A stretch of DNA of 64,000 nt from an uncultured Acidobacteriota bacterium (GCA_963761805.1 CAVXIV010000003.1:89627-153626), one strand, 5' to 3'. Positions 3,505 through 47,115 are shown, numbered from the stretch's first letter. Numbers and translations: made by a program. Notes: generated by a model from the sequence alone, not told the origin.

Positions 3505-3572
3505 CGAATGTCCCTGAAGGGACGATCCAAACCAAACCTCCCGGCCATGGAGCATGCCATGGTCTCTGGGAC

Positions 3573-3784
3573 CGCCCGGAACGGGCGAAATTTGAATAGC
3601 CCGGCGCTTCAGCGCCGGGTAGGGGGGCCATCAAATTTCCATCCGCCCTGAATGGGCGGGACCCAACGGTTCAGCCAGCCGGAACGTCCGGTTCCGCCAC
3701 CTTCGGGGCGGGGATGGATAGGGGAGATCCCGTTGACCCGGCGCTAAAGCACCGGGCTATTCAGATTCCGCCCATTCTGGGCGG
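3573..3784. repeat. MITE-like composite repeat, left copy
   Basis: The unit is about 212 nt and is bounded by about 48-nt inverted repeats (ccgcccggaacgggcgaaatttgaatagcccggcgcttcagcgccggg at one end, cccggcgctaaagcaccgggctattcagattccgcccattctgggcgg at the other). It also has an internal hairpin ccgccctgaatgggcgg. The whole unit recurs in direct orientation at 8719-8932. Confidence 0.65.
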
Positions 3785-3805
3785 TCCAGGATGGGGCGAA
3801 ATTTC

Positions 3806-6800: not shown

Positions 6801-8530
6801 AGCCTGGTGTCCGCTTCGGCTTCGCTCCCGCAGCGGTTGCCGAGGAAAGCACGGATCTGATCGCGGCTGAAGGTCTGGAGGATGCCGATTCTCGATCCTG
6901 AGATCAACTCGACTTCTTCGCCGAGCTTGGAACGGACCTGTTGGTCGGAAAGGAAGTGCTGACGGCGGCTGGTGACGACGATCTTGGCGTCACCCTGGGC
7001 GGCGGAGAGGAGGGTTTCGAAGTGCTCGGCGGCACGGTCGTACGTAACCCGCAAAGCAAGCTCGTCGAAGCCGTCGAAGAGGAGCACGATCCGGCCCTGC
7101 TCCAGCATGTAGCGGAATCTCTCGAAGCGGTAGCCCTCGGGTTCGTTCTGTCCGAAGTGCTGGCCGAGGAGCTGGGCCAGCGTACGGCCCTTTTCAAGGG
7201 ATCTCATCTGGAGGAGGATCGGGACCGGTCCCGATTCCAGGAGCCCCATGCGGCGCGCGAGCTCGTGCAGGAGGAAGGTCTTGCCCGTCCCGAAATCTCC
7301 CAGGATGACGGCGAAGCGCCGGTTGGGCGTGGAGAGCCACTCCTGAAGTTTCGCCAGGGCGTCCGGATGCTCTTCGTTCCGCTCCAGGGAGACCATCCGC
7401 TGGGTCACGTAGAGGCTGGGAGGGTAGAGCTTGTCCCGGGTCAGCTCTTCGGTCTGCCGGCGGAGATAGCCGCGGAAATCGATGAGGCCCATGTATTCGA
7501 TGAGGCTCATCAGGCGGACATCCCTGTTGCTGGCGACTTTCTGGAGGCCCTCCGGAGCCGGAGCGCCGCCGTAGATGAGATAGGAGATCATTCGGGGGTC
7601 GGCTGCGCGGAAGCCTTTATCGATCCGTTCGCGGAAGGCGTTCAGGTCTTCCAGAGAGACGTCATATTCGACGCCCGCGACCGGATAGTCCCGCACGATG
7701 TCTCCGTGCCGGACCGAGACCCGCAGGTAGTCCCAGAAGTCGCCTTCGCCCGAGATCCGCTCGATCTGCGCCGCGGGCTCCCGGAGACGGCAGACCCTCT
7801 CAACACGGGCGAGGAAGTCGTCCCGGATCTCGATAAAGGAGGGTTCGAGATCCTTTGAGGCCTTCGGCATGTAGTAGCCGCGGGTCCGTTTGGAAGAACG
7901 AACGGTGGTGGTCTCGATGACGGGCGCGGGCTCCGGTTCGGTGAAGGCGTTTGGAAATTTCTCGATGTCGAGAGGTGGGACAGCGGGTTCGAAAGGGGAG
8001 GATTCCGACGCGTCCACGATCCTCTTCGCGAAGGCGACGAGGAACTTTTGATAGGTGTCCTTCTGTTCGTCCAGACGCAGGAGGTATTGAAGCCCCTCGT
8101 TCCGGTAGGTCTCACCCAGATCGTCGAAGGAATATTGGATTTCGCGGAACTCCTTCGGGAGCGTCTCGAAGCTGGCGCCGAGGGGTTTCCAGAGGATGGG
8201 CAGGATGAGCTTGGGATTGGAGCCGTGAGAATCCAGGCGCGAGCGGAAGGCGGACCATTCCTTGCCGCAGTACTCGCTGTTGAAGAAGGAGCGGGAGTAG
8301 AGGGGAAGAAGGATCTGGCAGGTGGAGAGCGCCGAAGACAGCTCTTCGGGCCAACGGTCGCCGGTCTTGATTCCGTGGGTATCCCGGAAGCCTACGGGAT
8401 GGCTGGCTGAGAGGCCCATGAGGCCTCGGACTTCTTCGCGGATCTCCTGGAAGAAGCGGCCGAGGTGTTCGTCCGCGTCATTGCGGGCATAGCTGAAGAA
8501 GAAGATGGGACCGTCTTGTTTTAGGGTCAC
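3806..8530 (-). CDS. NLR-like STAND NTPase: TIR, unknown region, NACHT, pentapeptide repeats, 14 WD40 repeats
   Basis: 1574-aa ORF. Residues 7-140 form a TIR domain (FFFSYARND, SEYCGKEW with the conserved Glu). Walker A GDFGTGKT is at aa 411-418 and Walker B-like LLFDGFDE at aa 483-490 (NACHT). Residues about 798-895 carry roughly 19 pentapeptide repeats (ANLER/TNLSS/ADLTR and similar). Residues about 920-1530 form fourteen 42-aa WD40 units (GHxxxVxSVxFSPxGNTLASASDDKTVRLWD). Confidence 0.9.
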   Translation of the reverse strand: MTLKQDGPIFFFSYARNDADEHLGRFFQEIREEVRGLMGLSASHPVGFRDTHGIKTGDRWPEELSSALSTCQILLPLYSRSFFNSEYCGKEWSAFRSRLDSHGSNPKLILPILWKPLGASFETLPKEFREIQYSFDDLGETYRNEGLQYLLRLDEQKDTYQKFLVAFAKRIVDASESSPFEPAVPPLDIEKFPNAFTEPEPAPVIETTTVRSSKRTRGYYMPKASKDLEPSFIEIRDDFLARVERVCRLREPAAQIERISGEGDFWDYLRVSVRHGDIVRDYPVAGVEYDVSLEDLNAFRERIDKGFRAADPRMISYLIYGGAPAPEGLQKVASNRDVRLMSLIEYMGLIDFRGYLRRQTEELTRDKLYPPSLYVTQRMVSLERNEEHPDALAKLQEWLSTPNRRFAVILGDFGTGKTFLLHELARRMGLLESGPVPILLQMRSLEKGRTLAQLLGQHFGQNEPEGYRFERFRYMLEQGRIVLLFDGFDELALRVTYDRAAEHFETLLSAAQGDAKIVVTSRRQHFLSDQQVRSKLGEEVELISGSRIGILQTFSRDQIRAFLGNRCGSEAEADTRLNLIDSIKDLLGLSENPRMLGFIADLPEVQLCEAAAGGVITAATLYRLILERWLVHEFERVHPKGAPPGLSVQDRWNAVTLLAVRLWQKTDRYVNLEEIQADAAEAIQKIDRVFDEAIAAFQVGSGTLLVRDDEGNFSFLHQSILEFLVAQAAAEGLKKEGISSLLGEKDLSLLMIDFLTSFTGRENIVAWARQTTRGNDDIPKKNALLVLDRLQEKLDQAIDLSGQNLTGQDLSDQNLENANLERTNLSSAKLIRTRLHRARLVYANLRDADLTRADLSQTDLAHANLTRARLLGADLRGTDLGYAIFERAKLIGASLDEKSDSADFFGSALRIPDAPEGMTLFSSPSSAVAWNPKRDLLASAEGGLIRLWDPSSGQLIRAFQGHQGAVNSVVFSPEGNTLASASDDKTVRLWDTASGREMRAFQGHLGRVNSVVFNPEGNTLASASDDKTVRLWDTASGREIRAFQGHLGGSLSVVFSPTGNTLASTSYDNTVHLWDTTSGRKIRTFRGHQDWVRSVVFSPEGNTLASASDDKTVRLWDTASGREIRNFQGHLAPVNSVTFSPNGNILASASDDKTVRLWDTASGVEILTFRGHYWYVRSVAFSPGGNTLASASNDSTLRLWDIASGREIRVFQGDERGVRSMAFTLKGNTLASASDDHTIHLWDVASGQEIRAFQVRQDWVMSVAFNPEGNTLASAFDDHTVRLWDTASGKEIRALQGHQSVVRSVAFSPNGKNLASASDDKTVRLWDIALGREIQTFQGHHGGVSSVAFSPNGKNLASASYDKTVRLWDIASGREMQTFQRHEGHVYSVVFSPEGNTLASASDDKTVRLWEIASGREVRTFQGHQEGVNSVVFSPEGNTLASASDDKTVRLWDTASGRESQAFQGHQGGVSSVVFSPEGNTLASASFDNTVRLWDVATGRCIVILVHLPEGWVAFAPDGRYKYGGVIAGGFWHAINLCRFEVGELDEFVPGLRLPDDASFFDLPPVPPWVQAKA

Positions 8531-9125: not shown

Positions 9126-9878
9126 ATGCTCTGCCCCAAATGCCAGTTCGAGCAGGCGGACGGACCGGAGTGCGTCCGGTGCGGGGTGCTGTTCAGCCGG
9201 GTGGCCGAGGCGCAGGCGGCCGGCGGACGGATGTACAGGCCGGCGCCGGTCCGGGAAGAGCCGGAACCCACGGCGGCGGAAGAGTGGAAGGCGCTTTTGT
9301 TGGAGGAGGAAGACGCGCGGACCGATCCGGTGCGGTTCTGGGGACGGACGGCTCTCTACGCCATCCTCTTCCTGTGGAGCTGGCGGTTCCTGACGTCCTC
9401 GGTGGCGGAGAACTACGTGGGGGAGTCGTTCCTGCACTGGATCAACCTGCCGTTCCACGAGGCCGGCCACGTGCTGTTCGGGTTCCTCGGCGACTTCGTG
9501 CGGGCGCTGGGCGGGACGCTGGGGCAGCTCCTCATCCCGGCCATCTGCCTGGGGACGTTCCTGCTCAAGAACCGCGATCCGTTCGGCGCTTCGGTGGCGC
9601 TGTGGTGGCTGGCCGAGAACTTCATGGACATCGCTCCCTATATCGCCGACGCCCGGTCGGGACAGTTGCTACTTCTCGGCGGCGTCACCGGCCGGGACGT
9701 GCCCGGCTACCACGATTGGGAGAACGTGCTGGGGGACCTGAACCTCCTCCAGTACGACCAGACGCTGGGCGGTCTGTCGTACGCCTGCGGCCGGCTCCTG
9801 ATGCTCGCCGCCCTGGCCTGGGGCGGGTGGCTGCTGGTGCGCGAGCGGCGCCGTCTTGTGTCCAAGGAAAGCCTTTGA
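9126..9878 (+). CDS. zinc-ribbon membrane protein with an HExxH motif, putative membrane metalloprotease-like
   Basis: 250-aa ORF with an N-terminal CPKC..CVRCG ribbon, several TM helices, and HEAGH within LPFHEAGHVLFGF. Confidence 0.65.
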   Translation: MLCPKCQFEQADGPECVRCGVLFSRVAEAQAAGGRMYRPAPVREEPEPTAAEEWKALLLEEEDARTDPVRFWGRTALYAILFLWSWRFLTSSVAENYVGESFLHWINLPFHEAGHVLFGFLGDFVRALGGTLGQLLIPAICLGTFLLKNRDPFGASVALWWLAENFMDIAPYIADARSGQLLLLGGVTGRDVPGYHDWENVLGDLNLLQYDQTLGGLSYACGRLLMLAALAWGGWLLVRERRRLVSKESL

Positions 9879-10069
9879 AGAAGCTACTTCCGGACGCCCG
9901 TAGCGCCCGGGCGGTACACTGAACAGCACAGAAAAACTTGCAGTTTCGCTCGGACCGCTGATTTCACGCCTCTGCGCACGCTCTTCTAGAACGCTGCGGG
10001 ATGGGCTACGATACGGGCCGCGTCGCGTTTCTACCCATCTTTTACAAGGAGAGTCGAGGTCACACCGAT

Positions 10070-11545
10070 ATGACGGATGTCGTCCAGAAGTTCTGGGGGT
10101 TCTGCCACACGCTGCGGCATGACGGCATCGATTACGGCGATTACATCGAGCAGATCACATATCTGCTCTTCCTCAAGATGGCGGACGAGCGGAGCATCGA
10201 TCTGAGCCGGATGTCGGTGCCGGAGGAAGGGGAGGCGGTCATCGATTGCTCATGGCCGGCGCTGGCGGCGGAGTCGGGTGCGAAGCTGACGGCGCACTAC
10301 GCCGGCGTGCTGCGGACGCTGGGACGCCAGCCGGGTCTGCTGCGAGAGATCTTCGCGGGCGCGTTGTCGCGCTTCAACAATCCCGCGAATCTGAAGCGTC
10401 TGATCGATCTGATCGATGAGACGGAGTGGAGCGCGCTGGAGATCGACCTCAAGGCCGCCGTCTTCGAAGGCCTGCTGGAGAAGGCCGCGAGCGAAGGGAA
10501 GAAGGGCGCCGGGCAGTACTTCACGCCGCGCCGCCTGATCCAGAGCATCGTGCGCTGCGTGCAGCCGGACCCGCGCGGGGAAGCGGACTTCACGATCTGC
10601 GATCCGGCGTGCGGCACCGGCGGTTTCCTGGTGGTGGCCTACGAATGGCTGCTGGCCGCGAGCCGCGAGGACTCCCCCGGTCCCGAGGTGCTGGAGAAGG
10701 TGCGGCGCGGCACGTACTACGGCCAGGAGCTGGTGCCCCGGCCGCGGCGGCTGGCGCTCATGAACCTGTTCCTGCACGGCCTCGAGCCGGAGATCAAGCA
10801 GGGCGATTCGATCTACGACCTGCCGGAAGACCACAGGTTCGACGTGGTGCTGACCAATCCGCCGTTCGGCAACAAGGGCGCGAACCAGGTGCCGGACCGC
10901 GAGGACCTGATCGTCAAGACGTCCAACAAGCAGCTCAATTTCCTGCAGCACGTGGTGACGATGCTGAAGCCGGGCGGCCGCGCGGCGGTGATCGTTCCGG
11001 ACAACTGCCTTTTCGCCGATCAGGCCGGCGAGGTGTTCAAGCTGTTGACGCAGGAGTGCGATCTCCACACGGTGCTGCGGCTGCCCAACGGCACGTTCAC
11101 TCCGTACAGCGCCGGGACCAAGACGAACGTGGTCTTCTTCAAGAAAGGCGCGCCGACGGAGACCGTCTGGGTTTACGACGCGCGCACCAACGTGCCACGG
11201 ATCACCAAAAAGGACCGGCCGCTGACGCAGTCGCATCTCGCCGCGTTCGAGGTCTGCTACGGCATCGACCCGAACGGCAAGTCGCGGCGCTCGCCGGCCG
11301 ATTCGCTGGAGGAGCGCTGGCGGTCGTTTTCGATCGCCGAGGTCCGCGCCCGCGATTTCAAGATCGACGGTCTGAAGTGGCTCAAGGAAGAGTCACGCGA
11401 CGATGATCTGCCGGAACCCGAGGAGCTCGCGGAGGATGCCATCAATGAATTGGAGCGCGCAGTGGACGAATTGACGGCTGTGCTCGACTTGCTGGCGGAT
11501 GACGTAGAGCCGAGGCGCCCGCGCGTCCTCCCGGGTGGCGCGTGA
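10070..11545 (+). CDS. hsdM: Type I restriction-modification system DNA methyltransferase subunit
   Basis: The N-terminus MTDVVQKFWGFCHTLRHDGIDYGDYIEQITYLLFLKMADE parallels the EcoKI HsdM start. SAM motif I is DPACGTGGFL and catalytic motif IV is NPPFG. An alternative upstream start exists at 10001. Confidence 0.9.
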   Translation: MTDVVQKFWGFCHTLRHDGIDYGDYIEQITYLLFLKMADERSIDLSRMSVPEEGEAVIDCSWPALAAESGAKLTAHYAGVLRTLGRQPGLLREIFAGALSRFNNPANLKRLIDLIDETEWSALEIDLKAAVFEGLLEKAASEGKKGAGQYFTPRRLIQSIVRCVQPDPRGEADFTICDPACGTGGFLVVAYEWLLAASREDSPGPEVLEKVRRGTYYGQELVPRPRRLALMNLFLHGLEPEIKQGDSIYDLPEDHRFDVVLTNPPFGNKGANQVPDREDLIVKTSNKQLNFLQHVVTMLKPGGRAAVIVPDNCLFADQAGEVFKLLTQECDLHTVLRLPNGTFTPYSAGTKTNVVFFKKGAPTETVWVYDARTNVPRITKKDRPLTQSHLAAFEVCYGIDPNGKSRRSPADSLEERWRSFSIAEVRARDFKIDGLKWLKEESRDDDLPEPEELAEDAINELERAVDELTAVLDLLADDVEPRRPRVLPGGA

Positions 11546-30140: not shown

Positions 30141-31623
30141 ATGAACCTCCACGACCTCTTCGCCTGCCGCCGGGCGCCGGAGCGGACCGCTCTCCGCTTC
30201 GAGGGGAGGTCCCTCTCCTACGGCGAGCTGTTCGCGGACGCGGCCCGTCTCGCCGCCGGGCTGGCCGCCAGGGGGTTGCGGAAGGGGGACCGGGTGGCCT
30301 TCTTCCTGGGAAACCGGCCTGAATTTGTAACGGCGTACCTGGCGGTCCTCCAGGTCGGCGCGGTGATGGTCCCCATCAACCTCGCCTACCGCCGGCGCGA
30401 GATCGCCCACATGTTGACGGACGCCGAGCCCCGGCTCCTGCTGACGGAGAAGGCCCAGCTTCCCTGGCCTGGGAGAGCTGGCGGCGGACGAGCGCCGGAG
30501 CGTCGAGGAGGTGATCCTCGCCGAGGATCTCGCGGGCTGGCGGACCGGCGATTTCGTCCCGCCCCTCGTGGAAGGGAGCGATCTCGCCATGCTCCTCTAC
30601 ACCTCGGGAACCACCGGGAGGAGCAAGGGCGCCGAGATCACCCACGACAACGTCCTGGCGACCGTGACGGGTCTCCTCGCGGCCTGGGGCTGGGAGGGGA
30701 CCGACTCGCTCCTCCTCACCCTTCCTCTCTTCCACACGCACGGTCTGGTCGTGGGGCTCACCTGCGCCCTGGCGGCGGGGGCGGAGGTGCGTCTGCGTCC
30801 GCGGTTCGACGCCGCCGGAGCCGCCGGCGATCTGCTCGGCGGCCAGGTCACGCTGTTCTTCGGGGTCCCGACCATGTACGTCCGGCTGGTGGAGGAGCTG
30901 CGGTCCCGGGAGAAGCCGCTCGACTTCTCGCGCATGCGCCTCTTCTGCTCGGGGAGCGCTCCCCTGTCGCCGGAGACCTTCGGCGCCTTCCGCGAGCTGT
31001 CCGGCCACGACATCCTGGAGCGCTACGGCATGACCGAGACGGGGATGAACCTGAGCAATCCCTACGCGGGGCCGCGGCGGCCGGGAACGGTGGGAACGCC
31101 GCTGCCGGGCGTCTCGATCCGCATCGTGGACCGCGAGGGCCGGGACGTGGAGCCCGGCGGGGAAGGAGATCTCCTGGTCCGCGGCTCGAACGTCTTCTCC
31201 GGCTACTGGCGCGCTCCGGAGAAGACGGCGGAAAGCTTCGTCCACGACGCGCTGGGCCGGCGCTGGTTCCGCACCGGCGACCTGGCCCGGAAGGACCCGG
31301 AAACGGGCTACGTTGCTCTGCTCGGACGCAGCAGCGAGCTGATCCTCAGCGGCGGCTTCAACGTCTATCCCCGCGAGGTGGAGGAGGTGCTGACCTCCTT
31401 CCCCGGAGTCCGCGAGGCCGCGGTGGCCGGCCGTCCCCACCCGGAGTGGGGCGAGGTCCCCGCGGCCTGGATCGTCGCCGACGCACCCGTCGACCCCGAC
31501 GCGCTGATCGCCTTCTGCAAGTCCCAGATGGCCGGCTTCAAGGTGCCGCGGGAGATCCGGACCGTCGAAGCCCTGCCGCGCAACGCGCTGGGGAAGGTGC
31601 AGAAGCACCTGCTGCCTCGATAA
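30141..31623 (+). CDS. AMP-dependent acyl-CoA synthetase/ligase, with one apparent frameshift
   Basis: The N-terminal frame starts at 30141 and the C-terminal frame at 30511; they join near 30465. Motifs YTSGTTGRSKGA, YGMTETG, TGDLA and GKVQK are present. Confidence 0.8.
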
Positions 31624-32511: not shown

Positions 32512-33945
32512 TTGGTCTCTCCGGAAGAAACCGACGAGATGCGGGAACCGCTCTCCGCCGTCGATCACGCCTGGTTGCGGATGGACGATCCGACCAACCT
32601 GATGATCATCAACGGCGTGCTGGTGCTGGACGAGCCGGTGGACCTCGAACGGATCAAGGCCCTCCTGCGGCGGCGCCTCCTGCCCATCCGCCGCTTCCGC
32701 CAGCACATCATCCACTACAAGGACGATCCCTACTGGGAGGAAGACCCGGAGTTCGAGCTCGACCAGCACGTCCATCGCCTGGAGCTGCCCGCCCCGGGCG
32801 ACGACAACGTCCTGGGGGAAGTCGTCAGCAGCCTGATGAGCGAGCCTCTCCCCCCGAAGCGGCCGCTCTGGAGCTTCCACCTCCTGGAGCGCTACAAGGG
32901 CGAGGGCTGCGTCCTGATGGCCCGCCTCCACCACTGCATCGGCGACGGCATGGCCCTCCTGCTGGTGCTGCTCTCGCTGACCGACCTGACGACGGGGAAG
33001 CCGGCCGGGCCCGATCCGGGCGACGATTTCGAGGACAGCCCCTTCACCGAGCTCTTCCGCAAGCCGCCCCGGGGCCTCGAGGCCGCCAGGCAGCTCGCCC
33101 AGCACGTCATGCCGGACGGCATGCGGCTGCTCGAGCAGACCGCCCAGGCGTTCAAGTCGATGAACGCGATGGTCACGGGCGTGGCCTCGACGACCGCCCT
33201 CGGACGTCTCGTGCTCCGCCCGTCCGATCCGGACACGATCTACAAGGGCCCCCTGGGCGTCCCCAAGCGGGTCGCCTGGTCGGACCCGTTGACGCTGGAG
33301 GAGGTCAAGGCGGTCGGCAAGGCGCTGAAGGGGACGGTCAACGACGTCCTGCTCTCTGCCATGACGGGCGGGCTGCGGCGCTACCTGGGTCACCGGGGGG
33401 AGAAGGCGAACGGCCTCAACTTCCGGGCCGCCATGCCGGTCAACCTGCGGTCGCTGGACGAGATGTCGGACCTGGGCAACCAGTTCGGCCTGATCTTCCT
33501 CTCGCTGCCGGTGGGGATCGAGGACCCGGTGGAGCGGCTGGCGGAGCTGCACCGGCGGTCGATGAGCCTGAAGCGCTCGGCCGAGCCCATCGTGGTCTAC
33601 AACATCCTCAAGCTGTTGGGGGTCAGCCCCGAGCTGGTGCAGAAGATCGTGGTGGACATCTTCGCCGCCAAGACCACGGCGGTGATGACCAACGTGCCGG
33701 GCCCCCGGGAGGTGCTCTACCTGGCGGGCAAGGCCATCAAGGAGATCTTCTTCTGGGTGCCGCAGTCGGGCCGGGTGGGGCTCGGCATCAGCATCTTCAG
33801 CTACGCCGGCCACGTCCGCATGGGGCTCGCCTCGGACGCCGGCCTGGTGCCCGACCCGGAGGTCATCGTGCGAGGTTTTCACGAGGAGTTCGAAGAGCTG
33901 CGGGCCCGGGCGGCGAAGAGGCCCCAGGGACACAGGCGCGCTTGA
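32512..33945 (+). CDS. wax ester synthase/diacylglycerol acyltransferase (WS/DGAT)
   Basis: The HHxxxDG active-site motif is present (ARLHHCIGDG). Length is 477 aa. TTG at 32512 follows AGGAGGAGG. Confidence 0.85.
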   Translation: MVSPEETDEMREPLSAVDHAWLRMDDPTNLMIINGVLVLDEPVDLERIKALLRRRLLPIRRFRQHIIHYKDDPYWEEDPEFELDQHVHRLELPAPGDDNVLGEVVSSLMSEPLPPKRPLWSFHLLERYKGEGCVLMARLHHCIGDGMALLLVLLSLTDLTTGKPAGPDPGDDFEDSPFTELFRKPPRGLEAARQLAQHVMPDGMRLLEQTAQAFKSMNAMVTGVASTTALGRLVLRPSDPDTIYKGPLGVPKRVAWSDPLTLEEVKAVGKALKGTVNDVLLSAMTGGLRRYLGHRGEKANGLNFRAAMPVNLRSLDEMSDLGNQFGLIFLSLPVGIEDPVERLAELHRRSMSLKRSAEPIVVYNILKLLGVSPELVQKIVVDIFAAKTTAVMTNVPGPREVLYLAGKAIKEIFFWVPQSGRVGLGISIFSYAGHVRMGLASDAGLVPDPEVIVRGFHEEFEELRARAAKRPQGHRRA

Positions 33946-35837
33946 TCGGCGAAACGGTCTCGCATTACCGCATCCTCGACCGCCTGGGCGGCGGCGGCAT
34001 GGGCGTCGTCTACAAGGCCCTGGACCTCAAGCTCGACCGGCTGGTGGCGCTGAAGTTCCTGACCTCCCAGCGCGGCGCTCCCGAGGACGAGAAGAAGCGC
34101 TTTCTCCGCGAAGCCCGCGCCGCCTCCTCTCTCGATCACCCCAACATCTGCACCCTCTACGAGATCGGCGAGACCGAGGACGGCGCCGTCTTCCTCGCCA
34201 TGGCCTTCTGCGAGGGCGAGACGCTCCGCGAGCGTCTGGACGGCGGCCGCCTGCCCGTCGCCGAGGCCGTGGAGATCGCCTGCCAGATCACCGCCGGCCT
34301 CGCCAGGGCTCACGAGCGCGGCATCGTCCACCGCGACGTCAAGCCGGCCAACGTGATCCTCACCCGGGACGGCATGGTAAAGATCGTGGACTTCGGCATC
34401 GCCCGGCTCGCCGGCCAGTCCCGCCTCACCCGGGTGGGCACGGCGATGGGGACGCTGTCCTACATGCCCCCCGAGCAGTTCCGGGGCGAGGCCGCCGATG
34501 CCCGCGCGGACGTCTGGTCCCTGGGCGTGGTGCTCTATGAGATGGTGACCGGCCGCCTCCCCTTCGAGGGCTCCGACGAGCGCGAGATCGTCCGCGGCAT
34601 CCTCCACCATCATCCGCCTTCCATGTCCTCCCTCCGCTCCGGCGTGCCGCCGGCCCTGGACAGGATCGTGGAAAGGGCGCTGAGCAAGCACCCGGACGAC
34701 CGCCCTCCGGACATGGAGCGAATGCGGGCGGATCTGCGGGACCTGACGCCGGGGCTGGATATCCCCCAAGGCGGAGACGACGGTGACCAGACCCTCCTGG
34801 AGCTGCCCGGTCCTCCGCCCCCTTCCGCGCCCGCGCTACCGGAGGTCCCGAGCGAGGGGCTGATCGGGCGGAAGATCGGTCCCTACCGCGTGCTCGAATA
34901 CCTCGGGGGCGGCGGCATGGGGGTGGTCTACCAGGCCGAGGACACCCGGCTCTCCCGCGTGGTGGCCCTCAAGTTCCTGCCGCCGGAGCTGACGCGGGAC
35001 CCGGACGCCAAGGCTCGCTTCATGCTGGAGGCCCGGGCGGCCTCGGCCCTGGACCATCCCAACCTGTGCACCATCCTGGAGCTGGGGGAGACCGCGGACG
35101 GCCGGCTCTACCTCGCCATGCCGCGCTACGACGGCGAGACCCTGCGCCGAAGGATCGAGCGCGGGCCGCTGCCGCTGGAGGAGACTCTGGAGATCGGCGA
35201 GCAGATCTCCCGCGGCCTCGCCAAGGCCCACCGCAACGGCATCGTCCACCGGGACCTGAAGCCGGCGAACGTAATGGTCACCGGCGACGGGGTGGTGAAG
35301 ATCCTGGACTTCGGCGTCGCCAAGCTGGCGGGCGCGGCGGCCATCTCCCGCACCGGTTCCTCCTCCGGCACACCCGCCTACATGGCGCCGGAGCAGGCCC
35401 GGGGGGAGACCGTGGACTTCCGGGCCGACCTCTGGTCTCTGGGCGTGGTCCTCTACGAGATGCTGGCGGGCCGCCGGCCGTTCCGGGGCGGGCACGAGCA
35501 GGCGGTGGTCCACTCGCTCCTCAACGCGAGCCCGGAGCCCCTCGACCGTCTCCGGCCGGACGTCCCGCCGGCGCTGGCGCGGCTGGTGGAGCGCCTGCTG
35601 GCGAAGTCCCCGGCGGACCGCTATCCCACTCTGGACGAGCCTCTGGCGATCCTGCGTGAGTTGCGGGGCCAGCCGGGCACTGGCACCCTCCGCCACTGCC
35701 TGCCGCGCCGCGGACGTTTCTGGTGGTGGGGCGTGGCTCTGACCGTGGCCGCGCTGGCGGGATGGGCGTTCTATCTCTCGTGCCGCGCGGTCGGACGGGG
35801 CCCCGGGGATCGCGCCGCTCCAGGTCCAGCCCGCTGA
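33942..35837 (+). CDS. tandem double Ser/Thr protein kinase with a TM helix (copy 1, truncated by frameshifts)
   Basis: The TTG start overlaps the WS/DGAT stop. There are two complete kinase domains ([25 protein letters not shown] and GGGGMGVVYQA..HRDLKPANV..DFGVA), then a TM helix WWWGVALTVAALAGWAFYL. The reading frame is lost near 35790. Confidence 0.85.
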   Translation: MIGETVSHYRILDRLGGGGMGVVYKALDLKLDRLVALKFLTSQRGAPEDEKKRFLREARAASSLDHPNICTLYEIGETEDGAVFLAMAFCEGETLRERLDGGRLPVAEAVEIACQITAGLARAHERGIVHRDVKPANVILTRDGMVKIVDFGIARLAGQSRLTRVGTAMGTLSYMPPEQFRGEAADARADVWSLGVVLYEMVTGRLPFEGSDEREIVRGILHHHPPSMSSLRSGVPPALDRIVERALSKHPDDRPPDMERMRADLRDLTPGLDIPQGGDDGDQTLLELPGPPPPSAPALPEVPSEGLIGRKIGPYRVLEYLGGGGMGVVYQAEDTRLSRVVALKFLPPELTRDPDAKARFMLEARAASALDHPNLCTILELGETADGRLYLAMPRYDGETLRRRIERGPLPLEETLEIGEQISRGLAKAHRNGIVHRDLKPANVMVTGDGVVKILDFGVAKLAGAAAISRTGSSSGTPAYMAPEQARGETVDFRADLWSLGVVLYEMLAGRRPFRGGHEQAVVHSLLNASPEPLDRLRPDVPPALARLVERLLAKSPADRYPTLDEPLAILRELRGQPGTGTLRHCLPRRGRFWWWGVALTVAALAGWAFYLSCRAVGRGPGDRAAPGPAR

Positions 35838-37460
35838 CCAACCAGGAAGGGCGGGAGTGGTTCCCGACCCTTTCGCCGGACGGAGACTTCTTCGCCTACG
35901 CCAAGGCCTCTCCCCGGGGAGATCTCGACATCTACCTCCAGAGGATCGGCGGCGGCAATCCCATCGACTCTCACGGTGGACTCCCCCGTGAATGACACCC
36001 ACCCGGCCTTCTCTCCGGACGGCCAGCGGATCGCTTTCCGCTCGGAGCGGGACGGCGGCGGCGATCTTCGTGATGGGCGCCACGGGCGAGTCGGTGCGTC
36101 GCGTCACGAATTTCGGCTACAACCCCGCGTGGTCGCCGGACGGCAAGGAGATCCTGGTGGCGACCGAAGGCGTCAACGATCCGCGGGTCCGGAGCCGGAT
36201 GAGCCAGATATGGCGGGTGGAGGTGGATGCCTGGACAGCGGCGGCTCGTGATCGCGACCGACGCCGTCCAGCCGAGCTGGTCGCCACGAGAAGAAGCGGA
36301 TCGCCTACTGGGGAGTGCGGTCGGGAGGCGCCCGCCGGGGACCTTTGGACGGCCCGGCGGATGGGGCCGGAGCCGTGCGGGTGACGGACGACTGCTTCCT
36401 GAACTGGAACCCTGTCTGGTCTCTGGACGGCCGCTATCTCTACTACGCCAGCGACCGGGGCGGCAGCATGAATCTCTGGCGCGTCGCGATCGATGAGGAA
36501 TCGGGACGGTCCAGAGCGAGATCCGGAGCCGATCACGACCCCGTCCCAGTGGAGCGGGTTCCTGAGCCTCGCCGCGGACGGCCGCCGCATCCTTTTCGCG
36601 ACCCTCGAGGGCAGGTCGAACCTGGAACGGGTGGATCTGGACCCCGGCGGCCCCTCGGTCATGGGCCCTCTAACCCCGATAACCCAAGGTTCACGGGATG
36701 TCCGCTATGGCCGGGTCTCTCCGGATGGCCGCTGGATCGTATTCTCTTCCGGACCTCGCCGCAGGAGGACCTGTTCATCGTCGGCACTGACGGTTCCGGG
36801 CTTCGCCAGCTTACCGACGACGCCCCGCGCGACCGCAATCCTGGATGGTCTCCGGACGGCAGGAAAATTCTTTTCTATTCGGATCGCGGCGGCCGCTACG
36901 AGGCCTGGACGATCGGACCGGATGGCGGCGGTCTCCAGCGGATAGCCCCGGCCCGGAGCGAGCCGGTCTTCTTTCCGATCTGGTCGCCGGACGGCCGCTG
37001 GCTTGCGTGCGGTCTCGGGTTCACGGGGCCGGCCCTGATCGATCTCAACCGGCCGGCGGAAAAACAGATCCCCGAACGGCTTCCCAATCCGCCGCAGGGC
37101 GGCCCGTTCTTCGCCTATTCGTGGTCGCCGGACGGCAAGCGCCTGACCGGCGGTGTCCGCAACGCCGGCCTCTTCGTCCTTTCCCTGCAGTCACGCCGTT
37201 ATGAGCGCCTGATCGACCACGGATTCTTACCCATATGGCTCCCTGATGGCCGTCATCTGCTCTACCTTTACGAAGGAAAAATTCTCGCCCTCGACAGCCG
37301 GACGAGGATCTCGCGCGATCTGCTCACGCCCGCTCCAGGGACCTACTTCACCGGGTTCGACGTGTCACCAGACGGCCGCGCGCTTTATGCCATCCGCGCT
37401 AACGATCAGGGAGACATCGGAATGGACCACCCTGCCGTGAGCGAACCACGAGTGTGCTAA
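35809..37460 (+). pseudogene. TolB/PD40 beta-propeller sensor region of kinase copy 1, broken by about 8 frameshifts
   Basis: Pieces in three frames are colinear with the intact paralog 41356..44925: PLTNQEGREWFPTLSPDG, NDTHPAFSPDGQRIAFRSERDGGG, IFVMGATGESVRRVTNFGYNPAWSPDGKEI, DAVQPSWSP, NWNPVWSLDGRYLYYASDRGGSMNLWRV and so on. Shifts are seen near 35790, 35830, 35965, 36062, 36228, 36285, 36500 and 36745. Confidence 0.7.
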
Positions 37461-37516
37461 CCTAACTTTCTTCTGTATTACATCTCATTTTGATCGGGGT
37501 CTTTCCCCGGGAGGTG

Positions 37517-37795
37517 ATGATGAGCTTCAAGTCTCGAGACCTTACGGTGAAGCTGTCAGGTACGGGAGAGGGAGGCTGCGGCGGTTGTACGCCGACCAAT
37601 CCGGGTTGCGGGAGTTGCACGAACACCCATCCCGGCTGCGGCCACTGCACCGCCCTCACCGGAGGGATTTGCCCAACTGTACGGACACGTGCGACGACCC
37701 GATGCACCGAACAGACGACGCAAGCCTTGGACGGCGCCGGTCTCGCGCTGTTGCGCCAGCAACTCCAGGAAGCCCTGGGAGCGGAGTTGCGCTGA
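37517..37795 (+). CDS. 92-aa Cys/Thr-rich precursor-like peptide (P1)
   Basis: GGAGG is followed by ATGATG. The N-terminus is MMSFKSRDLTVKLS. The middle has three PGCGxCT-type units, with 8 Cys and 15 Thr in total. The C-terminal helix is LALLRQQLQEALGAELR. A paralog lies at 45014..45250. The gene sits 26 nt upstream of the lyase ORF. Confidence 0.7.
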   Translation: MMSFKSRDLTVKLSGTGEGGCGGCTPTNPGCGSCTNTHPGCGHCTALTGGICPTVRTRATTRCTEQTTQALDGAGLALLRQQLQEALGAELR

Positions 37796-37821
37796 AGAGG
37801 CGCTGTCCGGCGAGGTCGTAG

Positions 37822-38967
37822 ATGGCTGGATTTCTCTCCCGTGACTTCCGAGCGAATCCTCTCTACAACCTCGTCCTGTTCGACCGCCTGCCCGCCGGGC
37901 AGCGCGAGGCGCTGGCGGAGCTTGCCCGCGAGCCTGGTTTCTACGGCGTGCTGCGGCCTCGCGGTGAATCGGGCCTGGGCGTCCGGTCGGTGGACCGCGA
38001 TACGGCTCTCCTTTTCCTGACCCTGCGTGAGCCGGGGCCGCTTCCCGGCTACACGCGCGGCATGCTGGGCGAGGCCGCCGGGCGGACCGTCGCCCGTCTG
38101 GTGGCCGACGGTATCCTGGAAGTGGCGGACGGCGACGCCTTCGTCTCGGGCGCCGCGGCCCTCCGCCTGCTGGGCGAAGGGACCGTGGAGCTGGGAGGCG
38201 GGCGGATCGCCGAGCTGTCCCTCGCCGCCCTTCGCCATGCCCAGGCCCTGCCGGTGGACGACGTCTCGCTCCTCTCCTGGAGCCTCTACGCCTTCAACCG
38301 CCGTCCGCTGACGCCGTTCTGGCGCCGGACGCTGCCCTCGGCGGAGGCCGTCGAGAGCCATCTCGGGATCGATCCCGGCGGACGCAACCGGGAGCGGCTC
38401 GACCGGAGTTGGGGCCGCCTCCCCATGGAGGGATGGCTGAGCTGGGGGACCCGGGGCCGCGACCGGGCGCCGTCGTCCTGGGCGGGCTCCACCTACAAGC
38501 TCTACGTGAGCCCGGCGCCGGAGGCCCTCGCGGAGTCGTTCGGCGCGGTTCTCGACGCCTTGGCGGACGCGCGGGCCTACCAGTTCAAGATCGGACCGGA
38601 CGCTCCGGGCCTGCTGCGCCCCGACAAGATCGTCGCCTACTTCCACGGCTTCGATCCCCTGGCCAACGCCGCCGCGGCCGTGGAGAGACGCCTCGGCGGG
38701 GTGCCGGCCCAGGGCGTCCCGTTCACCTCCGAGATCGGCGGCGACGGGCTGATCTCGTGGGGCGTCGATCCTCCCCGGGGCGAAAGCGCGGGAGAGCGCG
38801 AGAGCTGGCGGCTCTGGCTGGCGCGCCGCTTGGCCCGGGCGATCCTCGACGCCCGGCGCTCGGACGGGGGGGGCGAGCCCTGGCGCTTCGCCGTGGAGCG
38901 CCTGCGCCTCGAAGGTGTGGACCCCGCCACCTGGACCCCGGGCGCCCTGCTCTGGCGGGAGGCCTGA
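37822..38967 (+). CDS. putative HopA1/OspF-like phospho-Ser/Thr lyase domain protein
   Basis: 381-aa ORF. Its C-terminal half has STYKLYVSP and RPDKIVAYFHGF segments, which I recognise as resembling lyase domains of class III/IV lanthipeptide synthetases. This is by eye and needs HMM confirmation. The ORF ends at a TGA that is in frame with the next ORF. Confidence 0.55.
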   Translation: MAGFLSRDFRANPLYNLVLFDRLPAGQREALAELAREPGFYGVLRPRGESGLGVRSVDRDTALLFLTLREPGPLPGYTRGMLGEAAGRTVARLVADGILEVADGDAFVSGAAALRLLGEGTVELGGGRIAELSLAALRHAQALPVDDVSLLSWSLYAFNRRPLTPFWRRTLPSAEAVESHLGIDPGGRNRERLDRSWGRLPMEGWLSWGTRGRDRAPSSWAGSTYKLYVSPAPEALAESFGAVLDALADARAYQFKIGPDAPGLLRPDKIVAYFHGFDPLANAAAAVERRLGGVPAQGVPFTSEIGGDGLISWGVDPPRGESAGERESWRLWLARRLARAILDARRSDGGGEPWRFAVERLRLEGVDPATWTPGALLWREA

Positions 38968-38973
38968 AGCCCC

Positions 38974-41334
38974 TTGGCCGTCACCGATCCCCTGCTGCTG
39001 CTGCCCGACGCGGTCCTGGTCCCGGTCGCGGACCTGCCGGAGGCGGTGCGCGGCCGCTTCGAGCACGAGGAGGGGGACTTCGCCCTCACCCATCCCCGCC
39101 TGCGCGCTCCGTCGCGCATCCTCGACGCTCCGTCCGCCGAGCTGCTGGAGCAGTTCCGCACGCCGCGCACCATCGTCGAGGCGGTGATCCGCTACAGCCA
39201 GGCCCGGCAGGCCGATCCCGAGGCCACCCTGGAGGCGGCCTATCCTCTCTTGGAGCGGCTCCTCGCCACCGGCTTCCTGGTCCCGGAGGGCGCCGCCGGG
39301 GCCGGGGGCATCCTCCCTCTGTTGCGGCCGGGAGAGACGCTGGGCGGCTTCGAGGTGCGGGAGTGCGTGCAGGAGCTGGAGGACACCGACCTCTATCAAG
39401 GCCGGGGACCGGAGGGGGCGGTGGCGCTGAAGGTGGCGCGGCCCAGGGAGGATTCCCCGGGCCCCGCTTTCGATTGGGAAGCCGCGGTCCTGCGGCATCT
39501 GGGCGGCGCGCCGGCCCCGCGTCTCCTGGCGGTGGGGGAGGCCGAGGGGCGGAGCTACCTGATCCTCGAATGGTGTTCCGGCGTGGAAGCCGGAAGCGCG
39601 GCCTGGGAGCATCGGCGGCGGGGTCCCGGCGGCCGGCGGGCTCTCCTGGCGCTCTGCCGCGAGGTCAGCGCGGCGTACGCCCGTCTCCACGAGAGCGGCG
39701 TGCTCCATGGCGACGTCCATCCCCGCAACGTTTTGGTGGGAGGGGATGGGAGCGTCCGTCTCGTGGACTTCGGCTACGCCCGTTGGGATGAAGCCCCCCG
39801 GGATCTCTCCCGCCCGGGACGCGCCGGCGTCGCCTTCTTCTTCGAGCCCGAGTATGCGGCGGCGGTGCTGGCCGGCCAGCCTCCGCCAGAGGTCTCGGTC
39901 TCCGGCGAGCAGTACGCCGTGGCGGCTCTCCTTTACTTCCTGGTGGCCGGGGCCCACTACCGCGACTTCCTCCTGGAGAGGGACGCGATGCTGCGGCAGA
40001 TCGCCGGGGAGCCGCCTCTCCCCTTCGCGGACCGTGGCGTCGAGCCCTGGCCCGAGGTCGAGGAGATCCTGGCGCGGGCGCTCGCCAAGGATCCGGATCG
40101 ACGGTATCCGTCTCTGGCCGCTTTCGAAGCGGCCTTCGCCGCCGTTCGGGAGCCGGACTCGCCTGTGGAGGCTGCGACCCGGACTCCCGCCGCCGACGAG
40201 CTCCTGGCGCGGGTGTTGGCGCGCCTGGAGCCGGGCGGCGATCTCTACGAAGGCGGCATCCCGGAGCCGCCCCGGGCGTCGATCAACTACGGCTCCTCCG
40301 GGGTAGCCTGCGCGCTCTACCGCCTCGCCCAGACGCGAGAGTCCCCGGCCCTGCTCTCCCTGGCGGAGCTCTGGGCGGCCCGCGCCGTGGCCTCCGGGGA
40401 CGCAGACGAGAACTTCTACAGCTCGGAGAAGGGGCTGGAGCCGGAGGACATCGGACGGGTCTCGCCCTACCATACCGCCACCGGGTTGTTCTGCGCGCAG
40501 GCGCTGATCGCGCATGCCCAAAACCTCCCGGGCGTGCAGCGCCAGGCGGTGAGCACCTTCCTCCGGGCCGCCCGCCAGCCGTGCGAGAACCTGGACCTGA
40601 CCCTGGGCTGCTCGGGGGTGCTCCTGGCGGCCGCTTTCCTGCTGGATATCGAGAGCGAGCCGGTCCTGGCATCGCTGGGGGAACTGGGGGACGATCTCCT
40701 CGCCGGACTCTGGAATGAGATCGATCCGCTCCCTCCCATCTCGGAGGATCGGGAGCGTCCGGTCCTTGGGATGGCGCACGGCTGGGCCGGTTATGTCTAC
40801 GCCTCGCTCCAGTGGTGCCGGGCCGCCGGCCGCCCTCTGCCTCCGCGGCTCCGCGAGAGGCTCGACGAGTTGGGGGCCTGCGCCCGGCCCTGGGGACGGG
40901 GCCTGCGCTGGCGCTGGCATGGGGGCGAGAGCCGCTGGGGTCTGGGCTCCATGCCGGGCTGGTGCAACGGCAGCGCCGGTTACGTCTTCCTCTGGACGCT
41001 GGCGCACCGGATGCTGGGCGATCCGGCCTACGCGGCCCTGGCGGAAGGAGCGGCCTGGAACGCCTGGGAGGAGCCCAGCCGCAACGCCAGCCTCTGCTGC
41101 GGCCTCGCCGGCCGCGCCTACGCCCTTCTCAACCTCCACAAGCACGGCGGCGGTCCGGACTGGCTGGCGCGCGCTCGCGACCTCGCCGAGCGGGCGGCCC
41201 GGGAGACCTCCCGGCCGTCCGATCCTCCGCACAGCCTCTACAAGGGGGAGCTGGGGGTGGCGGTCCTTACCGCCGACCTCGCCCGGCCGGAGGCTGCGGC
41301 GATGCCGTTCTTCGAAGAGGAGGGGTGGGGCTGA
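38974..41334 (+). CDS. Ser/Thr kinase domain fused to a LanC-like lanthionine cyclase domain (CCG zinc-site variant)
   Basis: Kinase motifs are AVALKVAR, HGDVHPRNVLV and LVDFGYA. LanC motifs are GMAHGWAGY, PGWCNGSAGY and SLCCGLAGRAY. The start is TTG at 38974. Confidence 0.8.
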   Translation: MAVTDPLLLLPDAVLVPVADLPEAVRGRFEHEEGDFALTHPRLRAPSRILDAPSAELLEQFRTPRTIVEAVIRYSQARQADPEATLEAAYPLLERLLATGFLVPEGAAGAGGILPLLRPGETLGGFEVRECVQELEDTDLYQGRGPEGAVALKVARPREDSPGPAFDWEAAVLRHLGGAPAPRLLAVGEAEGRSYLILEWCSGVEAGSAAWEHRRRGPGGRRALLALCREVSAAYARLHESGVLHGDVHPRNVLVGGDGSVRLVDFGYARWDEAPRDLSRPGRAGVAFFFEPEYAAAVLAGQPPPEVSVSGEQYAVAALLYFLVAGAHYRDFLLERDAMLRQIAGEPPLPFADRGVEPWPEVEEILARALAKDPDRRYPSLAAFEAAFAAVREPDSPVEAATRTPAADELLARVLARLEPGGDLYEGGIPEPPRASINYGSSGVACALYRLAQTRESPALLSLAELWAARAVASGDADENFYSSEKGLEPEDIGRVSPYHTATGLFCAQALIAHAQNLPGVQRQAVSTFLRAARQPCENLDLTLGCSGVLLAAAFLLDIESEPVLASLGELGDDLLAGLWNEIDPLPPISEDRERPVLGMAHGWAGYVYASLQWCRAAGRPLPPRLRERLDELGACARPWGRGLRWRWHGGESRWGLGSMPGWCNGSAGYVFLWTLAHRMLGDPAYAALAEGAAWNAWEEPSRNASLCCGLAGRAYALLNLHKHGGGPDWLARARDLAERAARETSRPSDPPHSLYKGELGVAVLTADLARPEAAAMPFFEEEGWG

Positions 41335-41355
41335 GGGGGGCGCGCGTGAGGGGAG

Positions 41356-44925
<3,570 letters not shown>

Positions 44926-45013
44926 AATCATGAATTCGTCCGCATCTGGTACAATTTAGCTCATCGTCCAAGGACATTTGAGATTCGATACCGGGGCTCC
45001 GCCCCAGGAGGCG

Positions 45014-45250
45014 ATGATGAGTTTTCAATCGAAGGACCTGATGATCGACCTTTCCCCCGTCGCCCGGCCCGGGTTCGAGATGTGCGGCCAGGCCACCCGT
45101 GACTCGCAGGAGGGGGGAGATCCGGACAACGAGCTGGAGTGCGGCCAGGCCACCCGCGGCGGCGACGGCGACCCTACCGAGAGCGCCAGTTTCCATATGG
45201 CGGCCCTGCGCCGGCAGCTCCGCGACACGCTGGCTCTCGAAGCGCGTTGA
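45014..45250 (+). CDS. 78-aa paralog of precursor-like peptide P1 (P2)
   Basis: The GGAGG-ATGATG start context is the same as for P1. The N-terminus is MMSFQSKDLMIDLS. The middle carries two CGQATR units. The C-terminal helix is AALRRQLRDTLALEAR. Confidence 0.6.
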   Translation: MMSFQSKDLMIDLSPVARPGFEMCGQATRDSQEGGDPDNELECGQATRGGDGDPTESASFHMAALRRQLRDTLALEAR

Positions 45251-45636
45251 AGACGAAGTTTTTTTTCCGCTTCTCTCTGGCCGCCCTCGCCGGGGCGGCC
45301 ACGGTCCTTTCCGCCTGGGCGGCCCCGCCGGAGCCGTCCGGGTTCAAGCTCAAGGGCGACGCCAAGCGCGGCAAGCCGCTCTACGCCAGAAGCTGCGCCC
45401 TGTGCCACGGCGCCACAGGCGACGGCCACGGCACGCTGCCCATCAAGCCTCCGCCGGCCGACCTCAGGGCTGTGACGCCCAAACGGAGCGACTGGGAGCT
45501 CTACGTGGTGATCCGCGACGGCGGTCCGGCCCTGGGCCTTTCCCCGCGCATGCTCGGCTGGTCCAAGACCCTGTCCGATCAGGACATCCGCGATACGGCG
45601 GCCTACATCCGCTCCATCCCGCCGGTCAAGAAATAG
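45247..45636 (+). CDS. c-type cytochrome (monoheme)
   Basis: The protein has a signal-like N-terminus (FRFSLAALAGAATVLSAWA) and a CxxCH motif (CALCHG). The only in-frame start after the previous stop is TTG 45247, which overlaps the P2 stop codon. Confidence 0.7.
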   Translation: MKTKFFFRFSLAALAGAATVLSAWAAPPEPSGFKLKGDAKRGKPLYARSCALCHGATGDGHGTLPIKPPPADLRAVTPKRSDWELYVVIRDGGPALGLSPRMLGWSKTLSDQDIRDTAAYIRSIPPVKK

Positions 45637-45645
45637 GGCGGGATC

Positions 45646-47102
<1,457 letters not shown>

Positions 47103-47115
<13 letters not shown>

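Follow-up and report, generated by a model that had tools for sequence, protein, structure and literature searches.

A probable two-subunit lanthipeptide synthetase with recognition domains and a three-cysteine cyclase motif in an uncultured Acidobacteriota bacterium

Two adjacent genes of an uncultured Acidobacteriota bacterium, denoted open reading frame (ORF) 1 and ORF2, probably encode the two subunits of a lanthipeptide synthetase acting on the peptides P1 and P2, which carry leaders of the MSF type; the probability of this reading was put at approximately 0.75. The genes were found in a stretch of 64,000 nucleotides (nt) with a G+C content of ~70% (GCA_963761805.1 CAVXIV010000003.1:89627-153626), the whole of which is referred to as the window and to which all positions given below belong. 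ORF1 (37822-38967, plus strand; 381 amino acids (aa)) would contribute a phospho-Ser/Thr lyase, and ORF2 (38974-41334, plus strand; 786 aa, TTG start) a Ser/Thr kinase and a LanC-like cyclase, preceded by a domain modelled as a recognition element (RRE) of RiPPs (peptides made on the ribosome and modified post-translationally). Kinase and cyclase chemistry would be as in LanL, the lyase would be free-standing as in class V, and RRE domains would be added; this combination is best read as a new architecture and, arguably, as a new lanthipeptide class. The cassette comprised the following features, in their order along the DNA:

37520-37795, plus strand: candidate precursor P1, 91 aa from the second ATG (alternative ATG at 37517), with leader MSFKSRDLTVKLSG and C-terminal helix LALLRQQLQEAL
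37822-38181, plus strand: N-terminal domain of ORF1 (aa 1-120), modelled as beta-beta-alpha-beta-beta-alpha-alpha-beta, probably a diverged RRE-like peptide-binding domain
38182-38406, plus strand: helical middle region of ORF1 (aa 121-195), joining the N-terminal domain to the lyase domain; AlphaFold2 helices 128-142, 148-156, 165-170, and 174-180, with a pLDDT score (predicted value of the local distance difference test) above 90 for most of the region
38407-38967, plus strand: predicted lyase domain of ORF1, assigned from Foldseek matches, invariant residues, and the spacing of catalytic residues
38974-39288, plus strand: PqqD-type RRE of ORF2 as modelled (aa 1-105; AlphaFold2, pLDDT 86; Foldseek)
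39331-40173, plus strand: Ser/Thr kinase domain of ORF2 (Pfam Pkinase and a weak APH match; LanL kinase model; alignments with PknE and PknB)
40279-41334, plus strand: LanC-like cyclase domain of ORF2 (Pfam LANC_like, E 9e-23; LANCL1 alignment)
45017-45250, plus strand: candidate precursor P2, 77 aa from the second ATG (alternative ATG at 45014), with leader MSFQSKDLMIDLSP and C-terminal helix MAALRRQLRDTL

A preliminary description, made from the DNA sequence alone, had seen in ORF1 and ORF2 a split, or interrupted, class IV-like synthetase. The coordinates given there for both ORFs were right, the motifs quoted from them were all present at the places indicated, and their third-position G+C contents (GC3; 0.89 for ORF1 and 0.88 for ORF2) were of the coding type; the TTG start of ORF2 is backed by the homologue consensus MAITDPL. 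The split itself was upheld, but not the interruption. Indeed, a stop codon separated the ORF1 and ORF2 homologues in all 69 related loci that covered the junction, the distance from the ORF1 stop to the ORF2 start ranging from -4 to +70 nt and being mostly -4 to +12 nt. In addition, a kinase-LanC ORF lay directly downstream of the ORF1 homologue in 41 of the 44 metagenome loci with enough downstream sequence. The homologues of ORF1 formed 1,466 clusters at 50% identity, the best 150 of which were nearly all 350-470 aa long and contained no long fusion proteins, and the hundreds of full-length homologues of ORF2 measured uniformly ~790 aa. The junction stop, the short spacing, the linkage, and the uniform length of ORF2 indicate a conserved, probably translationally coupled pair of genes, and, judged by this comparison of loci, the split is native. 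Long stop-to-stop ORFs in the loci L010, L012, and L016 might be taken for ORF1-ORF2 fusions; this was rejected, as their frame differs from that of the ORF1 match and no junction lacked the stop. That a class IV LanL gene was broken in two by mutation or sequencing error, leaving a pseudogene or an artefact, is therefore extremely improbable. The order lyase, kinase, cyclase does correspond to the domain order of LanL, and frameshifted genes do occur in the window (33942-37460 and ~30141-31623). However, a stop with a separate downstream start at every junction, the lengths of the homologues of both ORFs, the presence of an extra domain, modelled as an RRE, between lyase and kinase, and the lack of an ORF1 match to the LanL model all oppose a broken LanL gene, which is refuted by the comparative data.

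The gene order peptide, ORF1, ORF2 was also found in the loci L001, L002, L004 to L007, and L017. The last of these (JBEKMH010000010.1) is a complete cassette with a precursor in a 'Candidatus Cybelea' genome (phylum Vulcanimicrobiota), an occurrence that could be due to horizontal transfer or to faulty binning; the other genome matches all belonged to Acidobacteriota. Named matches of ORF1 were all annotated as hypothetical proteins, mostly of Thermoanaerobaculia and other Acidobacteriota. The closest relative is L004, with an ORF1 that is 93% identical at the protein level and ~88% nucleotide identity over the shared region.

The lyase assignment of ORF1 came from fold comparison only; sequence searches of ORF1 with Pfam (E <= 10), with NCBIfam, and against the PDB, by phmmer as well as with a 64-sequence profile, were empty. 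An AlphaFold model built from 121 sequences (pLDDT 91; predicted template modelling score (pTM) 0.88) had phospho-Ser/Thr lyases as all of its best Foldseek matches in the PDB. The top match was LxmY (9dk2_B; E 2e-9, 21% identity; E 2e-9 to 1e-8 among the LxmY chains); HopA1 (4rsx; E 4e-7), CuvL (8cav; E 4e-5), and SpvC/OspF (E ~2e-3) were matched too, as were the lyase domains of SalKC, ThurKC, and PneKC, and VirA. The proposal that the domain with the KLYV and RPDKIVAYF segments is a phospho-Ser/Thr lyase was thereby corroborated. On the model, the ORF1 lyase is nearest to the free-standing LanY enzymes of class V and not to the lyase domain of LanL. When 64 members of the ORF1 family were scanned singly with Pfam, RamC_N was matched weakly in five and HopA1 in four (best E 3.7e-4), which makes these the two commonest Pfam families among them (9/64).

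ORF1 contains the motifs LVADGILEV (aa 93-101), YKLYVS (aa 225-230), and LRPDKIVAYF (aa 265-274), and K226, Y228, K256, R266, D268, K269, S328, and R330 are invariant across the family. The spacing K226-30-K256-10-R266-7-Y273 is like that of CaoY (R187-32-K219-10-R229-7-Y236). Catalytic residues are R187, K219, R229, and Y236 in CaoY, and K104, H106, K136, R148, and Y158 in SpvC (PMC9486802). Since the spacing matches these catalytic residues, K256 is the likely base. Similarly, K226 would stand at the enolate-stabilising position, which is a Lys in OspF and LanL and an Arg in LanY, and Y228 would take the position of the acid His106 of SpvC.

Pfam recognised in ORF2 a Pkinase domain (aa 149-330, E 2e-11) and a LANC_like domain (aa 436-781, E 9e-23). 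The kinase motifs are AVALKV (aa 149-154, with the beta3 Lys), HGDVHPRN (aa 245-252, the catalytic loop), and DFG (aa 265-267); those of the cyclase are GMAHGWAG (aa 599-606), WCNGSAG (aa 663-669), and SLCCGLAG (aa 706-713). Together with the alignment of these motifs with LANCL1, PknE, and PknB, this agrees with the kinase (HGD, DFG) and the zinc-containing LanC domain of the preliminary description. In the alignment with human LANCL1, GMAHGWAG stands opposite GAAHGLAG, WCNG opposite WCHG, and LCCG opposite LCHG. Because LCCG aligns with LCHG, the third zinc ligand of ORF2 is a Cys where LANCL1 has a His, just as had been noticed at the outset. By motif, the cyclase zinc site therefore consists of three Cys ligands (WCNG, LCCG), and the catalytic His in GMAHGWAG is present as well. 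The CCG motif was found in all 15 LanC-containing ORFs of the genome loci and in all 41 metagenome loci; CHG was found in none. The LanC catalytic residues were sought in the alignment and were present, and, like those of the kinase, they are nearly invariant across the ORF2 family. The closest solved structure by sequence for the LanC domain is LANCL1, which is annotated as a glutathione S-transferase.

Concerning the affiliation of ORF2, the NCBIfam LanL model NF038150 aligned with it in one piece, from ORF2 aa 124-746 to model positions 189-809, covering the kinase and the cyclase without the lyase. The score was 166 bits, for a cut-off of 650, and ORF1 gave no match; the LanKC model scored 98.5 bits on ORF2, for a cut-off of 575. 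Taken alone, the kinase domain scored 75 bits with the LanL model and at most 57 bits with other kinase models, and the cyclase domain scored 76.5 bits with LanL, 57.8 bits with LanKC, and 51.3 bits with LanM. This qualifies the earlier view of a ProcM-type site. The system does share with the CCG-type LanM enzymes ProcM and SyncM a Cys as third zinc ligand (LCCG) and the pairing of one enzyme with several very different cores, and the CCG motif in LanM enzymes goes together with the processing of many diverse substrates (PMC10027976). However, ORF2 lacks the LanM dehydratase domain and its cyclase scores higher with LanL than with LanM. As the cyclase is LanL-like, the CCG site is probably an independent occurrence, resembling ProcM in motif and not in lineage.

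The N-terminal region of ORF2 (aa 1-128) was modelled alone (AlphaFold2, pLDDT 86) and compared with the PDB by Foldseek. Approximately 27 of the 31 best matches were RRE-containing RiPP proteins, headed by TigE (8vpo) and including PqqD (5sxy; target-normalised template modelling score (TMt) 0.69) and leader-bound TbiB1 (5v1v; TMt 0.73), besides LynD, ThcOx, MibB, TglI, TbtB, MccB, MadB, McbB, and a lasso B1 protein. The model displayed the winged-helix fold of RREs, i.e. a three-stranded sheet and three helices, and on this basis the domain can be accepted as an RRE. Compared with PqqD-type RREs (PqqD, TbiB1, LynD, NisB/MibB, TbtB, MccB), the fold and the strand/helix order are alike, with scores of 0.69-0.73 to stand-alone RREs, but the ORF2 domain has no detectable sequence similarity to them, a Pfam search of aa 1-142 returning nothing at E <= 10. 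Moreover, in contrast to these RREs, it is fused to a kinase-LanC protein, a fusion that was not found reported, and ORF1, its partner, seems to possess another copy of the domain, minus one helix. Indeed, the strand/helix order of the ORF1 N-terminal domain in the AlphaFold2 model parallels that of ORF2 except for this helix. By BLASTP, these N-terminal regions showed no significant similarity to each other (E 0.75), and hhalign aligned them over 62-96 columns with an E-value of 9e-4 and a probability of 23%, two controls giving E 0.26 and 0.35; TigE (8vpo) was also among the fold matches of ORF1 (E 0.097). The ORF1 domain is thus probably RRE-like, a diverged copy of the RRE of ORF2. The peptide-recognition modules that had been suspected at both N-termini are hence supported by the modelled fold of aa 1-105 in the case of ORF2, and are probable only in the case of ORF1. 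According to a structural paper of 2023, there is no identifiable RRE in any lanthipeptide enzyme of classes II to V (PMC10604976).

The two MMSF peptides pointed out in the preliminary description proved to be real ORFs; upstream of each there is a GGAGG resembling a Shine-Dalgarno sequence, together with a double start, ATGATG. P1 sits 26 nt upstream of ORF1, and P2 lies downstream of the gene that follows ORF2. The core of P1 contains eight Cys residues and, among these, three CG-x-CT repeats; P2 has the same leader and a core with two CGQAT motifs, and an orthologue with both CGQAT motifs occurs at the same position in L001. Pfam and NCBIfam gave no family match for the peptides, no further MSF-type peptides were found in the window, and no second ORF1/ORF2 pair was found near P2 when the window was searched by tblastn.

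Homologues of P1 begin with MSF, and the small ORFs directly upstream of the ORF1 homologues form one family with three parts, from which a regular expression retrieved a peptide in 25 of the 68 loci with enough upstream sequence. The first part is an N-terminal block, M-[SAP]-F-x-[SFI]-[KR]-D-L-x-[VI]-x-[VL] (in summary form MSFxSRDLxVxL). The second is a hypervariable core, rich in Gly, Cys, Ser, Thr, and Pro and often repetitive, for example with CGxCT in P1, CGQAT in P2, six copies of CTPSPP in L006, and six copies of CVTCTGTTG in L025. The third is a C-terminal helix, L-A-x-L-[KR]-x-Q-L-x-x-x-L, located 10-35 residues (mostly 13-26) past the last Cys, after which the peptides either end within ~15-20 residues, as P1 and P2 do, or run on as a coiled-coil-like tail of 53-76 residues. 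The idea that P1 and P2 are diverse substrates of one enzyme thus gained from their membership of a precursor family that is hypervariable between conserved ends. Among the 220 Cys residues of 29 non-redundant cores, 125 had Ser or Thr at position Cys+4, compared with 40.8 +/- 5.2 in shuffled sequences (z = 16), and 81 had Ser or Thr at Cys+1, compared with 43 expected. In the window, Ser or Thr is found at Cys+4 for five of the eight Cys of P1 and, as Thr, for both Cys of P2. This enrichment, a statistic of the sequences, lends independent support to predicted cross-links between Cys and dehydro residues with the Cys on the N-terminal side.

Two further observations concern the precursor family. 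Loci with long tails mostly lacked an upstream kinase-PD40 gene and loci with short tails mostly possessed one, with L025 as an exception. In L001 (2355-3953; also L005, 331-1929), an extra module is present upstream of the cassette, in which a 62-aa peptide that shares the leader and the follower (MAFDSKDL...LALLQQQL) is followed by a stand-alone LanC of 455 aa, which has the CCG motif and no kinase, indicating that the cyclase can also occur alone.

The mechanism that can be proposed draws, for its first four steps, on fold, motifs, gene linkage, and precursor statistics. Firstly, the short leader, whose hydrophobic residues alternate in the pattern F-x-x-x-D-L-x-V-x-L, would dock as a beta-strand on the RRE of ORF2 and perhaps also on the related N-terminal domain of ORF1. 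Secondly, the kinase of ORF2, given its intact catalytic motifs, would phosphorylate Ser and Thr residues of the core. Thirdly, the ORF1 lyase would remove the phosphate to yield dehydroalanine or dehydrobutyrine, K256 serving as base and being assisted by K226, R266, and Y273. It would probably act in complex with ORF2, as LxmK does with LxmY; LanK and LanY (LxmK/LxmY) work as a heterodimer (PMC12141560). Fourthly, the LanC domain of ORF2, its zinc held by three Cys residues, would add Cys thiols to the dehydro residues. As Ser and Thr are enriched at Cys+4, small rings of methyllanthionine or lanthionine, 'Cys-first' and spanning i to i+4, are predicted to recur along the hypervariable core. 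Lastly, the C-terminal helix may act as a second recognition element, or follower, or as an assembly element.

Two large genes adjoin the cassette in the window:

33942-37460, plus strand: disrupted second tandem-kinase-PD40 copy, immediately upstream of P1, sharing 50% identity across 1,213 aa with what 41356-44925 encodes
41356-44925, plus strand: tandem-kinase-PD40 gene (Pfam, NCBIfam), whose product has a pair of Ser/Thr kinase domains, a single transmembrane helix (aa ~608-630), and, in the periplasm, a beta-propeller of the PD40/TolB-like type

The disrupted copy has in-frame stops at 35835 and 36249 and, compared with the intact orthologue of L004, 21 gaps of mostly one or two bases; it is either a pseudogene or the result of local indel errors. 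Of the 29 metagenome loci in which the upstream flank was complete (3.5 kb), 19 had a tandem-kinase-PD40 homologue immediately upstream of the precursor, and so had L001, L004, L006, L012, and L013, distant genome loci included. The gene is a frequent, not an obligatory, partner of the cassette.

This partnership bears on the substrate of the two enzymes. It is quite unlikely that the pair acts on proteins, the OspF-like lyase irreversibly removing the activation-loop phosphothreonine of the neighbouring tandem Ser/Thr kinases and the LanC domain adding a thiol cap to the dehydro residues in LanCL fashion, as a signalling or protein-repair module. Such a role would accord with the receptor gene beside the cassette, present in the window as well as in those 19 of 29 loci, with the action of OspF and SpvC on kinases (PMC9486802), with the sequence match of the LanC domain to LANCL1, the annotated glutathione S-transferase, and with the lack of a protease or exporter gene nearby. 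However, approximately one third of the loci have no receptor kinase, a hypervariable Cys-x3-Ser/Thr peptide gene lies directly upstream of ORF1 wherever it is recognisable, the RRE of ORF2 is matched almost only by proteins that bind RiPP precursors, and the Cys+4 enrichment would be left without explanation.

A different question is what becomes of the products. The small proteins modified by the enzymes might be retained instead of being secreted as natural products. Bearing thioether staples, or phosphate only, they would have a role in structure or regulation, or one related to metals or redox, and they might also serve the PD40 receptor kinases as partners or ligands. Such a fate is unlikely on the whole. 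Nevertheless, many family members have long coiled-coil C-terminal tails, no protease or exporter gene lies within ~10 kb, the association with membrane receptor kinases is conserved, and a c-type cytochrome gene follows P2. Conversely, hypervariable cores are typical of diversifying secreted peptides and the tails of P1 and P2 are short; as the enzymology would be the same and only the fate of the product would differ, this is, of the rival explanations, the only serious qualification, and it concerns product fate and not enzymology. A possible but rather doubtful extension of the synthetase reading goes further than the two-subunit enzyme proper. It would make the system a new class in which two RRE-bearing subunits read a three-part precursor via two recognition sequences, the leader strand by one RRE and the amphipathic C-terminal helix as a follower for the other subunit, and install thioether staples of the Cys-first i-to-i+4 kind along the hypervariable repeats. 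The co-encoded periplasmic PD40 receptor kinases would either have these products as ligands or regulate them, and both together would make up a peptide-signalling circuit in Acidobacteriota.

Some points weigh against a two-subunit lanthipeptide synthetase. The RRE fold matches of ORF2 were modest (E 2.7e-3 to 0.5), though the list was highly consistent, and the assignment of the ORF1 N-terminal domain depends on a weak profile match. The residues of ORF1 were mapped onto SpvC and CaoY by spacing and not by superposition, and the position of the acid His106 of SpvC is occupied by Tyr228; the class V LanY enzymes also lack an acid His of the SpvC type, yet are active (PMC9486802). Furthermore, the coiled-coil tails of 53-76 residues in many family precursors are unusual for a RiPP, and a dedicated leader protease or exporter was not found within ~10 kb of the cassette.

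As to the remaining surroundings, directly after P2 (45250-45636) a small c-type cytochrome is encoded (CxxCH; Pfam Cytochrome_CBB3, E 2e-11) with a signal-peptide-like N-terminus, followed by a gene for a DASS-family transporter (45637-47115). An AMP-binding (acyl-CoA synthetase-like) gene at 30141-31623 is seemingly split over two frames, profile positions 5-101 being in the frame from 30141 and positions 153-384 in that of 30445-31623, which suggests another frameshift in the window. In L004, ~900 extra bases (9500-10400) between ORF2 and the kinase-PD40 gene form an insertion that is without counterpart in the window and that encodes, on the opposite strand, what looks like a toxin-antitoxin pair of helix-turn-helix (HTH)/XRE-like and RelE/HigB-like proteins. 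Membership of an anti-phage defence system was rejected, as PADLOC gave only generic kinase-domain matches (PD-T4-6 and mad6) and none for ORF1. A scan of 37300-45700 for sigma-70 promoters and intrinsic terminators yielded nothing above shuffled expectation. The G+C content of the region 2001-8000 is 0.59-0.64, below the ~0.70 found elsewhere in the window.

Lanthipeptide classes are defined by the architecture of the synthetase. With class IV LanL enzymes (e.g. VenL and CuvL (8cav)), the system shares the logic of kinase, phospho-lyase, and zinc-dependent LanC, in the same order along the DNA. The kinase and the cyclase of ORF2 each score best with LanL and are collinear with positions 189-809 of the model, ORF2 possesses both a LanC domain with zinc ligands and a kinase with the catalytic Lys, Asp, and Asn and DFG, and the lyase domain of CuvL matches ORF1 structurally. 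However, LanL is a single polypeptide whereas two genes are present in all 69 loci, the lyase region of the LanL model misses ORF1, and the 166 bits of ORF2 remain below the 650-bit cut-off. Moreover, the zinc site is of the Cys3 type by motif, instead of the Cys2His type of LanL, RRE domains are predicted, and the precursors have a conserved C-terminal helix and Cys-first motifs. With the class V LanK/LanY enzymes (LxmKY (9dk1-3) and CaoKY), it shares a free-standing HopA1-like lyase, for which LxmY is the best match, the 10- and 7-residue spacings of the catalytic Lys, Arg, and Tyr of CaoY, and, in the ORF2 kinase, the catalytic loop HGDxHxxN and a weak APH-family match. Yet class V kinases are stand-alone proteins with an APH fold, encoded in clusters without a LanC-type zinc cyclase, whereas the ORF2 kinase ranks by score as a protein kinase of the LanL type and forms one protein with a canonical LanC. 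Similarly, ORF1 differs from LanY in having Lys226 in place of Arg (R187 in CaoY) and an extra N-terminal region of ~190 residues, and the Pfam HopA1 model misses the protein of the window. The likeness to the class III LanKC enzymes (ThurKC, SalKC, PneKC, RamC) lies in the lyase fold, the five family members weakly matching Pfam RamC_N, and the leader helix, which is reminiscent of the LAxLRxQL helix found here; in class III leaders, an amphipathic helix binds the enzyme (PMC10604976). LanKC differs in being a single chain without an RRE, in its cyclase lacking the zinc ligands, all of which are present in ORF2, and in its recognition helix being N-terminal and not C-terminal. The system is also distinct from class VI (LanKCb of streptococci) and from AciKC and ThaM, the lanthipeptide systems that have been characterised to date in Acidobacteriota. 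Compared in this way, the system belongs to none of classes III, IV, and V, and the locus fits none of the lanthipeptide classes I to VI.

No description of this architecture was found in full-text searches of the literature, with subscription-only papers outside their reach, and the claim of novelty is provisional in that respect. Surveys count such loci merely as 'class IV lanthipeptide' clusters, and genome-mining tools probably file them in the same way, missing the lyase gene and the precursors. The RRE docking domains predicted here contrast with the reported absence of such domains from class II to V enzymes (PMC10604976), and a Cys3 zinc site is known otherwise from those class II enzymes that tolerate substrates most broadly. 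The precursors are very diverse, yet two conserved handles are common to them, as is one simple rule, Cys-x3-Ser/Thr. Large and widespread, the family is found mainly in Acidobacteriota of soil, and the natural products of this phylum have hardly been explored. If the two-subunit synthetase reading is true, the system would provide a new, possibly promiscuous peptide-stapling tool and a test case for the reading of leader and follower by two subunits, and it might connect ribosomal peptides with signalling through receptor kinases.

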